Shown here: positions 3,928 to 50,582 of the stretch, piece after piece
How the letters are laid out: each line of letters starts with the position of its first letter
Position numbering within the stretch: the first letter of the stretch is position 1
Notes under the pieces: model-generated
The model's input: the letters and a program-made list of their open reading frames with translations, nothing else
What the model was told of the DNA's origin: nothing
The model's database searches: none
UHGV virus genome: UHGV-1451962
Source of the DNA: a virus
DNA length: 64,000 bases
Direction: 5' to 3' (one strand)
Made by a program: the position numbers and the translations under genes

Positions 3928-6900
3928 TATCTCCCTGAAGTCTTGTATGTCTTAAAATTAAATCTCCATGTTCATCAATATTATCAATATGATATAATCG
4001 ATGAGAAATACTAGAAGCATATTTTTTACTAACAAATTCGTCCCCCCGACGAATACCCTGAATTAAAATCATATTACCTCTATTAAACCAACTCTTTTCA
4101 ATCACTTTCTTAGTTCCATCTGATTGACGTTCAGAAATTTGTTTATCAAAAACAGCGAAATGTTCCTTTCTTAACTTTACTGGTACTACTCCAGTAGTAG
4201 TTAAAAGATAAACAATTCCTTTTGGTTTATTTTTTGCAATACAAGTTCCGCAAATTTTATGCAGTTTATAAATAGGAATTTGAATAGCACCTTTTTTGAA
4301 AAACTTTTCTACTTCTGGTTCAGCAGGTAATTGCTCAAAATCAACAATACCATATTTGTTCTTATTAACATTAATCAATTCATGCGGATGATAATAAAAA
4401 CATAAAGCTTCCATTTCCCAAGAAGATAAATTACCAGAAGCATATTTTTCCCAATCTTTCATAAAAATACTTGTATTTAACTTATTTAAAATATTTTGTT
4501 TATCTTGATTAATCCAATTTCTAAAAACATCCATCCAAGTTTGATAAATGTTTTTATCCCAAATTTTCTTATTTAAGAAATAATTATTTTCAATCCAATG
4601 TCCATAATCCATTTCATAAATAAAATTTAAAGCTCTTTCATCAAGTTTATAATATTCATTGTCATATTTACATTCATTTTTTAAATATCTGTTAAATTCA
4701 TAAATTTTTCTTGCGGTTATTTGTTCTTCTGTTTCTTCTGGCAAAATTTTATGTCTAATTAATCCTGGAAGATTCTGTAAAGTTAATCTTGATTTTTTAT
4801 CACAAGTAAGCCACAAATAAGTAATCATTGTGTCATATCTAGGAGACAAATTATCAAAAGCACCGCCTTTAATCAAAGTAATCATTGCTTGTTTATTAGG
4901 TCTAACTCGATTGTAAAAATCTATCATAGAATTATAAGGACGTTTAGCAATAATATCTTTAATTAAATCATCTCCGACATTAAGCAAACTTTTTAAACCC
5001 ATCCAAATTAAATTCTGTTTTTCATCAGGAACAAAATTATATTGTGAATTATTAATATCTACAAGAGAAATTTTAATATTTGCTTTTTGCATTTTTCCTA
5101 AAGCAGTAGCAATTTTGTTATAATCAGTGCTTCCATCTTCTCCACCTGCATCATTAATAAGACAAGCGCAATTCCAATAAACAATAGGAAATTTAAAAGC
5201 TAAATTCATTTCTTGAACAGCAATGATAGAATAGGCAAGCGTATGAGATAGATTAAATCCATATCCTCGACTAGTTGCAATTAACACATTCCAAACATAA
5301 TTACAAAGATTTTGACTTAAACTTTTTTCTTTTACTTCTGTAAAATACTTTTTAGTAAGTTCATCATATGCAGCAGGATTTTTCTTTGCAATAGCTTTTC
5401 GCAAACTATCAGCAAAAGTCAAATCAAAACCACCGCACTCTGGAATTTGAACTAATTGCATAAATCCTTCCTGACTCTCACATATACCATAACTACCAGA
5501 AAGATATGGTTTAAGTAATTCTTGCTCTTGTTGAGTTAATCCATAGTTTTCCATTTCTTGATACCACAAATTAATATTTGCTTTAAAGCGAGCATATTTA
5601 TTTAAAGGTTGTTCTCCACCTTTTTCCTGAGCCATTAATCGAATAATTGAATTTAAGTGGGCTAAATCTTCAACTGATTTAGGGTGAGTTAATGCAATGC
5701 CTTGTATTCCACTTTGTTTTTCCATTTGGAATAAAGATTGAATTTCATGGTTATTAACCATTTTCCACATTTCAGAATCATTGCGTTCAATATTATATAC
5801 ACCTAAAATTTCTTCATAAGTTTCTCTTAAAGAACCTTTATCTTGAATTTTATTTGCTGCAAGTAAAAGATCGAGACAATTATGCATTTTATCCATAGCT
5901 TCAACGGATAATAGATCATACTTGATAAGACTTACATCTTCAGCCCGATGTAGATCATAACCTGTTACTATTGTTCCATCAGGAGCACGCATTAAAGAAG
6001 CGGACTCAGTAAAAGGTTCATCCACAAAAATAACTCCGCCTGCATGAATACCAGAACGACAAATCAAACCTTCAATTTTATGAGCTACATCCCACAATTC
6101 AGGATATTCTTTCATTTTATCAACAAAAGGTCTAATGATAGGATAACCATTTTCTTTATCACCATAATAACATTGAGATAAAGTGCGAATTAATCCTCTA
6201 TCTGCGGGAATAAGAGACGCAATATATTGAGCTTCATCTACATCAATACCTAAACCTCTACAAGCTGTTAAAATAGCACTTTTAGAAGTTTCTTTACCAA
6301 AAGTGATAACATTTGCAACTCTATCTTCACCATAAACTTCTCTTAGGTGAGAAAGAACTTGCGCTCTTTTAGATCCTTCAATATCTACATCTACATCCAA
6401 AACAGAAACTCGACTAGGGTTAAGAAATCTCCAACTAAAAGTTTGAACAGTTTCTCGCAAAGGATTAATTTGCGTTATATCTAAAAGATATAACAAAATA
6501 AAACCAACACCTGAACCACGACCTGGGCCAACTAAACTGCCAGCCTCCCAACAGCAATCAATAATTTTTTGAAGATTTAAATAATAAGCACTCCAATGAG
6601 TTTTATTTACTATTGATGATTCCCAAGTTTTATCCAAACAATCATTAATTGCTTCATAAGTCTTTTGATTTCTTAAAGTTTCATCTTTTTCTAATCGTTC
6701 AATAATAGCTTTAGCCAATTCTACATCACCAATATAATCAGATTCAATAAATTCCTTCAAAAGAGGAATATCATTTACCCAATCATATAAATTACTTTTT
6801 GGATTAAAAATTTTCCAAGGCAATTGTGGAATTTTTAGAGATTTCCGCAAATCATAATCTTCACATTGCGAAGCAATATAATTAATATTTTTATATGCTT

Positions 6901-26877: not shown

Positions 26878-27747
26878 TTACCCTATTTTAATTAACCCAA
26901 GTCTTGCGGAATTAATAGTTGCCACTGTATTACAAAAGATTATAATTTTATCTATTCTATTTTTTTCTAACATATACATTAAAAAAGCTAGAGAAATGTA
27001 AGATTTTCCTACTCCTGCTGGGCCTTGTAACAAAGTAATTTTATTATTAGCTAAACTATCAAAAGCACATTTTTGATATATGTCTCCTTGATATGGTTGT
27101 ACTTTTCCAAACCAGGTAGAATCAAAAGTAGGAAATTTTAAGTAACGATAAGTTTCTCCTGACCAAACCCGCACATCTATAAGTTCATCAAAATTATCAG
27201 GATTTTTTAAAAGTAGATATTCTCCTTTTTTAAGATTAAAATGATTATAGTTAGGATTTTCATAAAATTTAGAAATTAATTCTTCACTAGCAGTAATTTC
27301 TGCAATTCCACTATAAGTATCTAAATCTTCCTCAATAGAAGAAACATTTTCTTTGGGAAACAAACATAAAGCAATATGTTTTAAACTTAAATCATTAGTT
27401 ATAAATTCTAAACATTTATTTGTTTCAAACTCATTCCAAGCATCAGACAAAATTCTAGCATCATCATTAATATCAAAATTCATTTTATCTAAAATGTATT
27501 CATAATTTATTTGATGAATTTTAACAGAATAATTATTTGGATATTTTTCAAATAAATGAAGCAAAAGTCTTGCGGAATATTTTATATCAGAATCTTTATT
27601 TGCCGCAGTTTTAATTCTTTCTAATTCTTTTAAAGTAATAGAAGAAATGATAAATTTCTCATCATCTTCAAAAGCTGATTCTCCGGCTAATAAAAGACTA
27701 CAAGTATCGTAGAATTTAATAATAATTTCCACTCTCCTATTGTTCAA
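26878..27747 (-). CDS. phoH: PhoH-like ATPase, upstream exon (PIN-like N-domain plus Walker A)
   Basis: Walker A LLQGPAGVGKSY near C-terminus; last residues probably intron-encoded read-through. Confidence 0.65.
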   Translation of the reverse strand: MNNRRVEIIIKFYDTCSLLLAGESAFEDDEKFIISSITLKELERIKTAANKDSDIKYSARLLLHLFEKYPNNYSVKIHQINYEYILDKMNFDINDDARILSDAWNEFETNKCLEFITNDLSLKHIALCLFPKENVSSIEEDLDTYSGIAEITASEELISKFYENPNYNHFNLKKGEYLLLKNPDNFDELIDVRVWSGETYRYLKFPTFDSTWFGKVQPYQGDIYQKCAFDSLANNKITLLQGPAGVGKSYISLAFLMYMLEKNRIDKIIIFCNTVATINSARLGLIKIG

Positions 27748-27800
27748 ATAAGATAAAATAAATTATCTTTCTTTATTAGATTAAAAAATAAATAAAATAA

Positions 27801-28238
27801 TTAATTATTTATGGCCTTTCTTTGTCTTTTTAGAGAAGTAATTACTTTACTTTGAGCTTTTAAATATGTATTTAATTCTTTTTCTTCTGTTTTAATATAA
27901 TCCAAATACTTATTAATTTGCTGTTTTAGTCTTACTATTTCTTTAATGACAATGATATACTCACATTTTTTATTTTCTCTTAAAATATCGTTATAAAATC
28001 TTTTTACAGCATTGTATTCAATATTAGTTTTTTCTTTAATATCTTTTAAAGCATTAATAATTGCTCTTTTGTGAGCTATTGTTTGACCTACTTTGGTTGA
28101 GAAAAAGTCCATATCATCAGAATGACAAGTAGCAGTCCCAGTATAGTATTTTCGTTCATAATAAACTATTGCCTCAATTGAATTATTTGTGTAATTAAAT
28201 TCTACGGGTAAAAGATTAATTGTTTTTCTTAGACTCAT
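27801..28238 (-). CDS. hypothetical protein
   Basis: 145-aa ORF, predicted coiled-coil C-terminus. Confidence 0.4.
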   Translation of the reverse strand: MSLRKTINLLPVEFNYTNNSIEAIVYYERKYYTGTATCHSDDMDFFSTKVGQTIAHKRAIINALKDIKEKTNIEYNAVKRFYNDILRENKKCEYIIVIKEIVRLKQQINKYLDYIKTEEKELNTYLKAQSKVITSLKRQRKAINN

Positions 28239-48465: not shown

Positions 48466-48541
48466 TGGCAGCGGCAGTTGGATTTGAACCAACGGATATA
48501 CGGGTCAAAGCCGTACGTCTTAACCACTTGACTATGCCGCT
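48466..48541 (-). tRNA. tRNA-Gln (anticodon TTG)
   Basis: Acceptor AGCGGCA/TGCCGCT, anticodon arm TACGG-CTTTGAC-CCGTA, T-arm GTTGGTTCAAATCCAAC, CCA. Confidence 0.75.
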
Positions 48542-48559
48542 ATATCAAGATGCTATTAA

Positions 48560-48680
48560 TAAACCTTATAGAAATATATTTACTATATAGTATTTTAATA
48601 AACTTTATAGAAATATATTTACTATAATATACTATTTTTATAAACCCTATAAAAATATATTTGTAATAATTATTGCTGGA
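48560..48680. repeat. Three ~38-bp imperfect direct repeats (iteron-like)
   Basis: aaccttatagaaatatatttactata... repeated three times. Confidence 0.5.
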
Positions 48681-48886
48681 AGCATCTTATAAAGAAGAAA
48701 GAAAGGATAAAATAAGAAAAAACTAGACACAAAAAATTTCTTGTAAGTCTCATTATATTAAAGAAATTTTCACAAAAGATAATATAAATCATTGACATAC
48801 TTTTTCATTAAATGGAGCTGTTAATAGGGCCACAGCAAGCCGCAAATTATAATATCAGTATTATAAAATTGCTGTATGTGTCTAAA

Positions 48887-48962
48887 TGGTAGAAAATGTC
48901 AGATTTGAACTGCGACTCTAGCTCCCAAAGCTAGCGTGTTACCAGATTACACTACATTCTCT
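48887..48962 (-). tRNA. tRNA-Pro (anticodon TGG), irregular T-stem
   Basis: Acceptor AGAGAAT/ATTTTCT, anticodon arm CTAGC-TTTGGGA-GCTAG, T-loop TTCAAAT, CCA. Confidence 0.6.
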
Positions 48963-49056
48963 TGGCGGAAACGGTGGGTGCCGACCCCACTCGCCTATTT
49001 TCATAGACCTAACGGTTTAGCAAACCGTCCTCTTTGCCAACATTGAGTACATTTCC
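48963..49056 (-). tRNA. tRNA-Ser (anticodon GCT), class II, non-canonical T-loop
   Basis: Acceptor GGAAATG/CGTTTCC, anticodon arm ACGGT-TTGCTAA-ACCGT, variable-arm hairpin with GAAA loop, T-arm GTGGG-GTCGGCA-CCCAC, CCA. Confidence 0.55.
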
Positions 49057-49175
49057 ATATAAATTAGAAATAATTATCTATCACTAATAGTAATTACTTC
49101 ATCAGAAAAAATCATATCATCCAAATCCATAAGGCAGCTCTCCTTTCTATATTTAATTTTTGCTAGACTCTTTTA

Positions 49176-49250
49176 AACCAGAAATGGGAATCGAACCCAT
49201 ATTTTTACCTTTTCAAGGGTAATGTCTTAACCTTTTGACTATTTCAGAAT
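49176..49250 (-). tRNA. Atypical tRNA-like element (possible pseudo-tRNA or expanded-anticodon-loop tRNA)
   Basis: Canonical T-arm ATGGGTTCGATTCCCAT but apparent 8-nt anticodon loop CTTGAAAA on TTACC/GGTAA stem, poorly paired acceptor, no CCA. Confidence 0.35.
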
Positions 49251-49278
49251 TAAAGAATTTTTGCTGTATGAGTCTATA

Positions 49279-49352
49279 TGGATGCAGACTTTGGAATCGA
49301 ACCAAAATAACTTAGCTTATGAGACTAAGCGGAGAACCAACTCTGCCTGCAA
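49279..49352 (-). tRNA. tRNA-Met/Ile (anticodon CAT), short D-arm
   Basis: Acceptor TGCAGGC/GTCTGCA, anticodon arm TTAGT-CTCATAA-GCTAA, T-arm TTTGGTTCGATTCCAAA, CCA. Confidence 0.6.
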
Positions 49353-49430
49353 TATATAAACAAGACACTTGTATTAAAATTTTATGCCATTTTTTATTAT
49401 AAAATAAATTGCTGTATGTGTCTTTTGTTA

Positions 49431-49506
49431 TGGTACTCCTAGCGGGCTACGATCCCGCGACTCTAGCTTGAAGGGCTAGCGACTTAGCCTACTTGTCGAT
49501 AGGAGC
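49431..49506 (-). tRNA. tRNA-Glu (anticodon TTC), variant T-loop
   Basis: Acceptor GCTCCTA/TAGGAGT, anticodon arm CTAGC-CCTTCAA-GCTAG, T-arm GCGGG-ATCGTAG-CCCGC, CCA. Confidence 0.6.
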
Positions 49507-49517
49507 TAATTAATATA

Positions 49518-49594
49518 TGGCGGATCCAGTTCGACTTGAACGAACAACCCACGGATTAACAGTCCGTTGCGCTAACCAATTACGCTATGGATCC
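49518..49594 (-). tRNA. tRNA-Asn (anticodon GTT)
   Basis: Acceptor GGATCCA/TGGATCC, anticodon arm ACGGA-CTGTTAA-TCCGT, T-arm GTTCGTTCAAGTCGAAC, CCA. Confidence 0.75.
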
Positions 49595-49789
49595 AAATTT
49601 CTTTTTTCTTTTAAAGGAACCTTTACCCTTTTTAGGTTTTACTTTACTACCTCTGCGGCGAAACTGCAAATACTCTTGAAGTTCATCGCCATTCTTTTTC
49701 GCCCATAAATTCTTGTTCTTCTGTTTCTTCATAATCATTCTCCTGATTGGTAACACTACCAACTTCATCAGATTGAATCTCGCAATCAA
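49580..49789 (-). CDS. hypothetical small Lys/Arg-rich protein (first gene of tRNA array 2 transcript)
   Basis: 69-aa ORF, about one-third K/R, preceded by consensus promoter; 3' end overlaps tRNA-Asn by ~15 nt. Confidence 0.35.
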   Translation of the reverse strand: MIARFNLMKLVVLPIRRMIMKKQKNKNLWAKKNGDELQEYLQFRRRGSKVKPKKGKGSFKRKKKFGSIA

Positions 49790-49834
49790 AGGAATCCCAG
49801 TAAAACATTAAATCAACCTCAACTTTCTATAAAT

Positions 49835-49863
49835 ATTATATCATAAAATTTTTAATTTTTCAA
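49835..49863 (-). promoter_or_regulatory. Sigma-70-type promoter (TTGAAA-N17-TGnTATAAT)
   Basis: Reverse complement TTGAAA, 17 nt, TGATATAAT. Confidence 0.55.
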
Positions 49864-49927
49864 ATTGAGATTTACTAGACAGTTTTAAACAAAATAAATA
49901 CCTTACCAATAGGCTACTTTACAGACT

Positions 49928-49961
49928 TGTAAAGACAGGAATCGAACCTGCATGTCATTAC
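49928..49961 (-). ncRNA. tRNA minihelix-like element (acceptor stem plus T-arm only)
   Basis: Minus strand GTAATGA-CATG-CAGGTTCGATTCCTG-TCTTTAC: canonical T-arm between 7-nt complementary arms, no D or anticodon arm. Confidence 0.3.
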
Positions 49962-49989
49962 TTATATAAATATTGCTGTGTCTGTCTAA

Positions 49990-50071
49990 TGGTGTTGGAT
50001 AAGAGACTCGAACTCTTACGCTTGTGCGGTAGCTTCTAAGGCTACTATGTCTACCATTCCATCAATCCAAC
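49990..50071 (-). tRNA. tRNA-Leu (anticodon TAG), class II
   Basis: Acceptor GTTGGAT/ATCCAAC, anticodon arm GTAGC-CTTAGAA-GCTAC, long variable arm, T-arm GAGTTCGAGTCTC, CCA. Confidence 0.7.
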
Positions 50072-50140
50072 ATTTCTTTGGTTAATCTTATATAAATATT
50101 ATATCATATTTATTAATTAAAGTCAACCAAAAATTTTTAA

Positions 50141-50170
50141 CGGTTTTAATTTCTTTAAGACCGCGAACTT
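50141..50170. repeat. Direct repeat flanking tRNA(TAA), copy 1
   Basis: cggttttaatttctttaagaccgcgaactt, resembling copy at 50281. Confidence 0.4.
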
Positions 50171-50197
50171 AAAATTAAATCGCACAATATTCTGCGC

Positions 50198-50276
50198 TGG
50201 TAGCACTGATGGGACTCGAACCCACACTGAATAGATTTTAAGTCTACTGCCTGCTTCCAATTGGGCTACAGTGCCA
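50198..50276 (-). tRNA. Class I tRNA with anticodon TAA (short variable arm; identity uncertain)
   Basis: Acceptor GGCACTG/CAGTGCT, anticodon arm GTAGA-CTTAAAA-TCTAT, 5-nt variable loop, T-arm GTGGGTTCGAGTCCCAT, CCA. Confidence 0.55.
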
Positions 50277-50280
50277 TATG

Positions 50281-50310
50281 CGGTTTTACAATTTAGACCG
50301 CAAACTAAAA
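50281..50310. repeat. Direct repeat flanking tRNA(TAA), copy 2
   Basis: cggttttacaatttagaccgcaaactaaaa. Confidence 0.4.
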
Positions 50311-50506
50311 GATATAATTTAAAAGTTAATATAAAAGTGAAAAAGTTTTAGTTAATAACATTGATACTCGGTTGCCTAAAAGTAATTCCACGTGATTTTC
50401 TATCACTCTTTCTAAATGTAAATCAAACGTTGATTGTAGCAAAGGGAGGGATTCAAATGACGCAACATTTAAATACATCAAACTTTTATTACATTTAAAT
50501 TATTAA

Positions 50507-50582
50507 TGGTAGTGCTGTTGGGATTTGAACCCACGTCTAGCGATTATAAGTCACTGGCTCTAACCTACTGAGCTACAACACT
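50507..50582 (-). tRNA. tRNA-Ile (anticodon TAT)
   Basis: Acceptor AGTGTTG/CAGCACT, D-arm GCTCAGTAGGTTAGAGC, anticodon arm AGTGA-CTTATAA-TCGCT, T-loop TTCAAAT, CCA. Confidence 0.7.

Follow-up and report, generated by a model that had tools for sequence, protein, structure and literature searches.

In the 64,000-nt stretch of the virus genome UHGV-1451962 analysed here (the window; all coordinates are positions therein, and L001 to L019 label the compared loci and contigs), the second of two tRNA arrays is probably a mosaic composed of genuine tRNAs and of copies of a modular small RNA. These AGAC...ACAGCAA...GUCU RNAs are likely to constitute a modular multi-copy family residing in phage tRNA arrays, and would account for two of the "odd tRNAs" that an original prediction, made from the letters of the array, had described. 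The same degree of confidence, which applies jointly to the explanation as a whole, extends to the proposal that they are the Y RNA equivalents of a Ro60-fold DUF2828 protein encoded in the window. The explanation is built on the RNA structures, their repetition and covariation, the predicted fold of the protein and the genomic association of both, as observed in this analysis.

The signature of the family consists of a closing stem of the form 5'-WAGACNN...N'N'GUCUW-3' and of the motif ACAGCAA after its 5' strand. The string AGACACAUACAGCAAU was seen just 3' of the CCA of four tRNAs, in each case with a complementary partner downstream. Five copies were located in the window, all of them minus-strand: four in the second tRNA array (i to iv), beginning 1 to 6 nt past the CCA of a tRNA (1 nt after tRNA-Leu(UAG) for copy i, 2 nt after tRNA-Met for copy ii), and one at the first array (v; see Table 1). 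ACAGCAA is invariant in all of them, and the differences between their closing stems compensate each other (AG/CU, UC/GA, AC/GU; UU/GA with a single U.G pair). The enclosed inserts differ: copies iii and v contain little, copy iv an unrelated insert of 150 nt, and copies i and ii the two tRNA-like structures treated below. The short copies matched no Rfam 15 family. Because a strong promoter-like sequence precedes tRNA-Leu(UAG) and copy i begins 1 nt past the CCA of the latter, both look co-transcribed. A possible sixth copy (AAGACUAAAACAGCAA ... UAGUCUU, 240 nt; 27694-27933, minus strand) lies outside the tRNA arrays, overlaps the start of an open reading frame (ORF) and is doubtful.

A megablast search of the tRNA array against 50,697 phage records gave no match, and a search for related loci with the neighbouring 434-aa protein found nothing. 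Protein searches revealed the strain L006, approximately 97% identical, and many relatives of 45–71% protein identity on contigs of 130–200 kb, among which the gene order radical SAM gene, tRNA arrays, DUF2828 gene, SLH protein gene is kept. Across 200 kb from seven non-redundant genomes, the 5' motif was counted 45 times and always on the tRNA strand (0.8 occurrences expected by chance); an exact complementary partner was present 35–330 nt downstream in 40 of the 45 cases, compared with 2 upstream and 2.5 in shuffled sequences, and 11 different dinucleotides occupied the two variable stem positions. Relatives carry up to 11 or more copies per genome. A set of 228 distinct elements has a median length of 90 nt; at least 32 contain permuted T...D modules, 136 lack a T loop, and 11 enclose cloverleaves callable by ARAGORN, with the "anticodons" GUU, AUA, UUU, UAA, UCC and CUC and with 8-nt loops in two lineages. 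A reading of the repeats as mobile elements of the miniature inverted-repeat transposable element type was discarded: the terminal pairs covary and are not conserved in sequence.

The tRNA-like inserts of copies i and ii

A permissive scan with the Rfam YrlA model (RF02553) gave a weak match at 49873-49988 (30.2 bits versus a gathering score of 69). In the alignment, copy i displays a T arm, a closed hairpin and a UA followed by a D arm, i.e. a circularly permuted tRNA closed by the long-range stem, and the minimum free energy (MFE) fold independently gives the same stems. A covariance model built from the copies of the window and L006 had matches in all relatives and in Bacillus phage PBC2; it also hit the spacer immediately following the Ro-like gene of mycobacteriophage Wamburgrxpress, the spacer that precedes the DUF2828 gene of Enterococcus phage 113 and a site downstream of the Felixounavirus DUF2828 gene. 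Among 11 homologues, 92% of the cells of the alignment were paired, versus 41–46% with slid partners; closing stem, T arm, acceptor-like (AS) hairpin and D arm each reached 98–100%, with compensatory changes at 15 of their 22 pairs (19 of 29 for the whole structure), and RNAalifold on its own predicted the same four helices. Sub-threshold YrlA matches of 28–48 bits were consistently obtained, on copies of the permuted type only. At gathering thresholds, Rfam reported no YrlA in Bacillus phage PBC2, a mycobacteriophage or a Listeria phage; the relationship emerged only with the model derived from the window's own element. Judged by this covariation, the insert of copy i is a predicted circularly permuted tRNA mimic, like those of the bacterial YrlA Y RNAs. 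Permuted copies at L014:753-885 and L007:7944-8076 contain, at the D-arm position, a tRNA-Leu-like D arm together with a UAA anticodon arm, which gives an almost complete permuted tRNA.

The cloverleaf of copy ii (49175-49250) was called tRNA-? (Ser or Phe) by ARAGORN, with a 4-base anticodon, tgaa, on a 5-bp anticodon stem and a G+C content of 33%; the standard finder retains the 8-nt loop instead of a normal 7-nt one. The element scored 48.0 bits on the Rfam tRNA model (gathering score 29), with an inserted loop base and two non-standard acceptor pairs. Compared with L006, the stem of the 8-nt-loop arm differs by two compensatory pairs (UUACC/GGUAA versus UCACU/AGUGA) around an unchanged loop, and the change in the acceptor region strengthens its pairing; neither strain encodes CCA there. 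Positional orthologues behind the atypical tRNA-Met in L007 and L012 possess 7-nt loops with GUU and UUU. Exact-pattern scans of IMG/VR for the 8-nt-loop arm retrieved L001 and, as a chance match inside a gene, L002, and nothing else. In L001, an unrelated 110-kb viral contig, the identical arm CAUUACCCUUGAAAAGGUAA is followed by a T arm (6640-6730); no tRNA was called there, the AGAC/ACAGCAA signature is missing, and the locus stands outside the family.

The four observations of the original prediction on this array were all present in the sequence, on the minus strand, and correctly described: non-canonical elements do exist, and those concerning a class I tRNA(UAA) and variant T loops pertain to genuine unusual tRNAs (see below). 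What has to be revised is the interpretation of the remaining two. The 8-nt loop and the poor acceptor stem of 49175-49250 were recovered by ARAGORN and Rfam; the pseudo-tRNA or frameshift suppressor then suggested leaves aside the context of the element, an insert of a repeated structured RNA possessing a covarying stem and ACAGCAA. The supposed minihelix of acceptor stem and T arm at 49928-49961 does include a canonical T arm (49951-49935), whereas its "acceptor stem" is not the pairing partner and the structure is not free-standing: covariation places the T arm, together with the closed hairpin and the D arm, within the long-range stem.

It is highly unlikely that 49175-49250 is a working tRNA with an expanded loop, reading the quadruplet UUCA by its anticodon UGAA or acting as a +1 suppressor once RNase P/Z have trimmed it and CCA has been added. 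The score on the tRNA model, the 4-base anticodon call, the 8-nt loop kept in spite of two compensatory stem pairs, and the identical arm beside a T arm in L001 would be compatible with such a molecule, as would the RNase P cut and CCA receipt known for Mycobacterium smegmatis YrlA (PMC4201824). In opposition to these points, CCA is not encoded (versus 15 of the 16 other tRNAs of the window), the acceptor stem has two mismatches in either register, the family closing stem and ACAGCAA enclose the element, and the cloverleaves of the family, including the orthologues in L007 and L012, carry many different "anticodons". The search for +1 frameshift sites that the original prediction had proposed revealed, over the 64 kb of the window, no 0/+1 ORF junction at which UUCA stands in frame. 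Because of the missing CCA, the poor acceptor stem, the 7-nt loops and other "anticodons" of the orthologues and the lack of such a junction, the 8-nt-loop element is probably not a decoder. Frameshift-suppressor tRNAs of the sufD/sufJ type are likewise cloverleaves with an 8-nt anticodon loop and a 5-bp stem; from these the copy ii element is set apart by the very features just listed and by its position within a larger RNA.

Extremely improbable, in turn, is a reading of the odd elements as decaying, functionless pseudo-tRNAs or fragments produced by recombination and homing-endonuclease traffic, even though the low G+C content, the poor acceptor stem, a divergence from L006 faster than that of neighbouring tRNAs and the PDDEXK_5 and GIY-YIG endonuclease genes that fill the arrays of relatives would be in line with decay. 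The two compensatory pair changes relative to L006 around an unchanged loop indicate, as far as sequence comparison goes, that the 8-nt-loop element is not a decaying pseudogene; the strong covariation of copy i in 11 homologues from very different phages is hard to square with one, and the same closing stem and motif were encountered in hundreds of instances, without exception on the tRNA strand.

The Ro60-fold protein and its association with the RNA family

The 507-aa DUF2828 protein is encoded where the first tRNA array ends, by the strand that also carries the RNA copies. Homologues were found in 704 phage records, those of mycobacteriophages being annotated as "Ro-like RNA binding protein"; a literature search on DUF2828 yielded nothing relevant. 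In its AlphaFold2 model (predicted local distance difference test score, pLDDT, of 78), the protein is predicted to adopt a full-length Ro60 fold: the 13 best Foldseek matches in the PDB were all Ro60/TROVE structures (510–588 aligned columns, E values of 2e-8 to 9e-5, template-modelling (TM) scores of 0.40–0.59), and nothing but Ro60/TROVE was matched at E <= 1e-4, comprising, over the full length, Ro60 of Thermus phage phiLo as the best structural match, Xenopus and human Ro60 and Deinococcus Rsr. Based on this predicted fold and on the genomic association described in the following, the protein is inferred to be a putative binding partner of the modular RNA family.

The signature adjoins DUF2828 genes in Enterococcus, Staphylococcus, Felixounavirus, Bacillus and Mycobacterium phages. 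The Staphylococcus phage has a single copy next to the gene and one tRNA at the locus, Felixounavirus has four copies, and the mycobacteriophage locus is devoid of tRNAs. In the window, copy v is 1.4 kb and copies i to iv are 8.8–10.1 kb distant from the gene on the same strand; in other phages, copies of the family abut it. A scan of IMG/VR with one 16-mer version of the motif found at least 120 loci (median of approximately 9 kb of DNA per locus), and an exact 3' partner was present in 93 of the 120 matches listed, to which the following counts refer. A DUF2828 homologue, 27–60% identical to that of the window, occurred in 43 of the 93 partner-bearing loci versus none of the 27 partnerless ones (Fisher p = 1.3e-6), tRNAs in 86 (92%) versus 2 (Fisher p = 2e-17); the 27 partnerless loci are chance matches.

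In the window (38351-41241) and in L003, L005, L016 and L019 (Bacillus, Listeria, Enterococcus and Campylobacter phages), the DUF2828 gene directly follows a tRNA array on the same strand. Other RNA-related features were encountered at such loci: a gene for the RNA ligase RtcB follows the DUF2828 gene in a Listeria phage, drum RNA is encoded in the adjacent array of Listeria phage LMTA-34 (L005, 15980-16078), and ROOL and tmRNA in that of Enterococcus phage 113 (L016, 1416-2002 and 7525-7875).

Table 1. Positions and characteristics of the RNA copies, their modules, the DUF2828 gene and selected tRNAs in the window.
Feature	Position	Strand	Characteristics	Basis
Y-like RNA copy i	49874..49990	-	stem AGACAG (49987-49982)/CUGUCU (49882-49877); CAGCAA 49978-49973; permuted tRNA-like insert	covariance model, MFE fold, covariation
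T arm of copy i	49935..49951	-	GCAGG UUCGAUU CCUGU; core of the supposed minihelix	98% paired in 11 homologues, compensatory changes
Closed acceptor-like (AS) hairpin of copy i	49917..49934	-		98.5% paired, compensatory changes at all 6 pairs
D-arm-like hairpin of copy i	49900..49914	-	GCCU AUUGGUA AGGU, UA just before	100% paired, 3 of 4 pairs compensatory
Y-like RNA copy ii	49164..49276	-	stem AGACUC (49275-49270)/GAGUCU (49170-49165); CAGCAA 49266-49261; non-permuted cloverleaf insert	signature match
tRNA-like cloverleaf of copy ii	49175..49250	-	8-nt loop CUUGAAAA; anticodon-like arm 49222-49205; no CCA	ARAGORN, Rfam
Y-like RNA copy iii	49362..49424	-	short form, 63 nt; stem AGACAC/GUGUCU; behind tRNA-Glu	signature match
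Y-like RNA copy iv	48723..48885	-	163 nt; stem AGACAC/GUGUCU; insert not tRNA-like; behind tRNA-Pro	signature match
Y-like RNA copy v	41256..41320	-	short form, 65 nt; stem AGACUU/GAGUCU with one U.G; head of first tRNA array	signature match
Ro60-fold protein (predicted)	38351..39874	-	507 aa; Pfam DUF2828 + DUF7788; PHROG 850 "RNA-binding protein"	Pfam, PHROGs, AlphaFold2 + Foldseek
Sigma-70-like promoter, strong	50098..50126	-	TTGACT-17-TATAAT; ahead of tRNA-Leu(UAG) and copy i	consensus match only
Class I tRNA(UAA)	50198..50275	-	short variable loop, A73, CCA	Rfam 57.1 bits, ARAGORN
Class II tRNA-Leu(UAA)	41156-41241	-		ARAGORN
tRNA-Glu(UUC)	49431..49506	-	T loop AUCGUAG (A54/U58)	Rfam alignment, ARAGORN
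tRNA-Ser(GCU)	48963..49056	-	T loop GUCGGCA	ARAGORN
Atypical tRNA-Met(CAU)	49279..49351	-	CCA present, U1-A72, U73	ARAGORN, Rfam scan

Genuine tRNAs of unusual architecture

ARAGORN reported 17 tRNA-type genes in the window, throughout on the minus strand, in arrays at 39930-41241 and 48466-50582. The second array contains ten genuine tRNAs with CCA encoded in every one, among them those for Gln, Pro, Ser(GCU), Met, Glu, Asn, Leu(UAG), class I Leu(UAA) and Ile(UAU); some have features that are unusual but structurally compensated. Apart from the copy ii cloverleaf, tRNA-Ser(UGA) of the first array (40739-40828, minus strand) is the sole tRNA of the window without an encoded CCA.

The class I tRNA with anticodon UAA, noticed in the original prediction along with the class II tRNA-Leu(UAA) of the first array, was confirmed: its variable region comprises 4–5 nt and the long class II arm is missing, whereas Leu-type features (D loop CCAAUUGGAAG, a 3-bp D stem and A73) are present. 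It aligns with short-armed tRNAs of Enterococcus phage 113 (UAG), Bacillus phage PBC2 (UAG), Felixounavirus (UAG, CAA, UAA) and Campylobacter phage CP8 (UAA), and the anticodon arm and variable loop of the Enterococcus phage 113 tRNA match nearly base for base. Altogether eight phage homologues form this family, the seven besides that of the window likewise lacking the long arm; A73 is common to all of them and the D loop CCAAYUGGCAG to most, and compensatory changes were found at 19 of 21 pairs. The bacterial (E. coli) leucyl-tRNA synthetase recognises mainly A73 and the tertiary core rather than the long arm or the anticodon. Since recognition depends on these elements, the likeliest identity of the molecule, as read from its sequence, is tRNA-Leu, as a member of a recurrent short-armed phage family. 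Another identity, e.g. a tRNA-Phe with a G34U exchange that would insert a different amino acid at UUA/UUG, is very unlikely: position 34 is the sole difference between the anticodon arm of the window tRNA and that of a relative's tRNA-Phe(GAA), and bacterial tRNA-Leu ordinarily belongs to class II, but the conserved family has exclusively Leu anticodons (UAA, UAG, CAA) in addition to A73 and the Leu-like D loop. The molecule shares the Leu anticodon, A73, a Leu-like D loop and a 3-bp D stem with class II bacterial and mitochondrial class I tRNA-Leu and deviates from the former by its short variable region; the type recurs in Enterococcus, Bacillus, Campylobacter and enterobacterial phages, an architecture widely used by phages and not known to be used by bacteria.

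The T loops of tRNA-Glu and tRNA-Ser(GCU) were likewise found as previously described, tRNA-Ser(GCU) itself not being reported by the Rfam tRNA model at E <= 10. The T arm of tRNA-Glu is identical in L006, as are all 94 nt of tRNA-Ser(GCU); in distant relatives, tRNA-Glu has the canonical T loop UUCGAAU and both variants are absent. Because they are unchanged in L006 and missing from the distant counterparts, the variants are regarded, on this comparison, as real and specific to the lineage. The identity of tRNA-Ser(GCU) in both strains was set aside as a sign of selection, being weakly informative (probability of no change in 94 nt of approximately 0.05 at 3.2% divergence). In the atypical tRNA-Met, which the original prediction had not listed, a single nucleotide separates the acceptor stem from the D stem; the latter comprises 3 bp and the anticodon stem 6 bp. 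No match to the Rfam tRNA model was listed for it, the sole match within the clan being tRNA-Sec with 23.7 bits; since this was the only clan match shown, any suppressed match to the tRNA model must lie below 23.7 bits and below the gathering score of 29. Compared with L006, the acceptor stem exhibits two one-sided changes (G-C to G.U; G.U to G-C) with pairing kept. Counterparts with a reduced D arm (69–73 nt, without CCA) occupy the same position before a cloverleaf-bearing Y-like copy in L007 and L012.

Several features of the array and its relatives are of separate interest. In L006, an 808-nt insertion with a PDDEXK_5 ORF (L006:2384-3192) interrupts tRNA-Pro precisely at its anticodon loop and has the appearance of an intron or homing element; the equivalent position 48925 of the window, within tRNA-Pro (48887-48962), lacks it. 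Suppressor-type tRNAs with a CUA anticodon were detected in sister phages (L009:7214-7304, L011:992-1067, L014:2132-2202), none in the window, and suggest a reassignment of the TAG stop codon in these relatives. A basic 50-aa ORF at 49580-49732 (minus strand), kept in four relatives, gave a weak Pfam match to ArfA, an alternative ribosome-rescue factor (E value of 0.0027, below the cut-off), on the motif KGKGS(F/Y)xRKxK. Its last five codons and stop codon are located inside tRNA-Asn (49594-49518), in the same way as the L007 orthologue overlaps tRNA-Glu(CUC); in consequence, RNase P cleavage would leave a non-stop mRNA, which is reminiscent of the regulation of E. coli arfA.

The proposed system, its alternatives and its relation to known Ro60 particles

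According to the proposed mechanism, each copy in the second array would be transcribed just behind a tRNA, the 3' processing of which would free the 5' end of the copy; the 5' and 3' ends pair in the 7–9-bp stem WAGACNN/N'N'GUCUW. Ro60 proteins contact Y RNAs via the terminal stem and a conserved 5'-side motif. The DUF2828 protein might correspondingly recognise the stem and ACAGCAA, in analogy to the contact of Ro60 with the stem-bulge (CGAA-type) region of Y RNAs. The variable modules, and the tRNA mimics in particular, could tether or gate the ring to tRNA-handling enzymes or exonucleases, e.g. the host polynucleotide phosphorylase (PNPase). The likely purpose would be to control the quality of tRNAs and other structured RNAs, or to turn them over, while infection proceeds. 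Binding, processing and physiological role are thereby deduced from gene content and sequence, and within these terms there is good reason to regard the modular RNAs as Y RNA equivalents of the DUF2828 protein.

The repeats might alternatively represent punctuation of tRNA operons, i.e. promoters with AGACA as -35 element, attenuators or stems processed by RNase III/E/Y, which would have nothing to do with the Ro-like protein and would carry tRNA-like inserts incidentally. This is held to be unlikely. Copies iii and iv do score as sigma-70-like sites (AAGACA-17-TATAAT, 10/12), the copies lie between tRNAs, which accompany most partner-bearing IMG/VR loci, and long-range stems are typical RNase III substrates. 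Promoter-like sites are, in opposition to this, not in excess in the region (12 versus 11.5 in shuffles), and the spacing to the -10-like hexamer is inconsistent among the copies, for which reasons the motif was dropped as a promoter candidate. Moreover, changes in the 5' strand are matched by covariation of the 3' partner, and the motif stays the same between phages that infect Gram-positive bacteria, mycobacteria and enterobacteria, hosts with differing promoters. The single copies beside the DUF2828 gene at the Staphylococcus phage and mycobacteriophage loci, with one tRNA and none, and the skew of DUF2828 homologues towards partner-bearing IMG/VR loci likewise speak for the Y RNA reading.

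Several findings weigh against the Y RNA reading. The 507-aa protein has no Pfam TROVE match (DUF2828 and DUF7788 only) and no sequence match in the PDB at E <= 1, so that its relationship to Ro60 rests on a predicted fold with TM scores of 0.45–0.55. In copy i, two inner helices first drawn between the closing stem and the insert were unsupported (73% and 47% paired in the 11 homologues) and were dropped from the structure; copies i and ii differ from L006 by approximately 7%, versus an array average of 3.2%. About half of the IMG/VR element loci among the matches listed show no DUF2828 gene within the short stretch examined, the DUF2828 loci of Listeria and Campylobacter phages yielded no copy of the family by regular expression or covariance model, and copy i, 10 kb from the gene, is beyond the 4-kb criterion used for YrlA. 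Finally, the Rfam YrlA scores of 30–48 bits are below the gathering score of 69, and the published YrlA 5' motif GNCGAAN0-1G, the proposed Ro60 contact, is absent; ACAGCAA at the equivalent place resembles it without fitting it.

A more far-reaching version of the Y RNA reading, which is rather doubtful at present, would regard the AGAC...ACAGCAA...GUCU RNAs as an unrecognised, very widespread phage family, namely the cognate Y RNAs of a DUF2828 branch of the Ro60 superfamily, whose exchangeable inserts (permuted mimics, cloverleaves, other folds) programme one Ro-like ring for several tasks. If so, the most interesting possibility would be that the Y-like RNAs are decoys or adaptors protecting or remodelling the tRNA pool against tRNA-targeting defences of the host; RNase P/Z and the CCA-adding enzyme might also convert copies with cloverleaves to free tRNA-like molecules. 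Under the Y RNA reading in general, the "undetermined" or "pseudo" tRNA labels that tRNA finders assign in many large phage genomes would be explained here as modules of ribonucleoproteins of the Ro60/Y RNA type, and DUF2828, present in more than 700 sequenced phages, would gain a candidate RNA partner with a defined binding signature. The tRNA arrays of virulent phages might, this suggests, be part of a larger cassette that combines RNA surveillance with tRNA supply.

Among known RNAs, the family is most similar to YrlA (RF02553; Chen et al. 2014, PMC4201824), which is bound by Ro60, carries tRNA-like T/AS/D domains and occurs in some phages. Common features are the end-pairing stem, a conserved 5'-side motif, the permuted order of T arm, AS hairpin and D arm in copy i, a location on the same strand as and near the gene of a Ro60-fold protein, and several paralogues per genome. 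Besides the deviating scores and 5' motif, the RNAs of the window differ from YrlA by a partner, DUF2828, that is undetected as TROVE by sequence, by their number (5 copies here, up to 11 or more in relatives) and interleaving with tRNAs, and by inserts that in most copies here lack a tRNA-like module (no T/AS/D in iii, iv and v) or, in some, are a non-permuted cloverleaf (copy ii). The available text on Thermus phage phiLo describes a Ro60 that binds two phage-encoded stem-bulge-stem Y-like RNAs, Yrl1 and Yrl2, and the host PNPase (PMC12135203; PDB 9KOP, 9L5Y); a phage-encoded protein of Ro60 fold with phage-encoded RNAs beside its gene is common to both systems. According to the same text, the two phiLo RNAs have a bulge of sequence CGAA, their protein is recognised as a homologue of Ro60, and neither a tRNA array nor tRNA-like inserts are described (PMC12135203); binding and PNPase recruitment are experimental in phiLo and deduced from the genes in the window. 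YrlA and the phiLo Ro60/Y RNAs are already known; a modular, multi-copy family within phage tRNA arrays would be a novel variation on this Ro60/Y RNA type.

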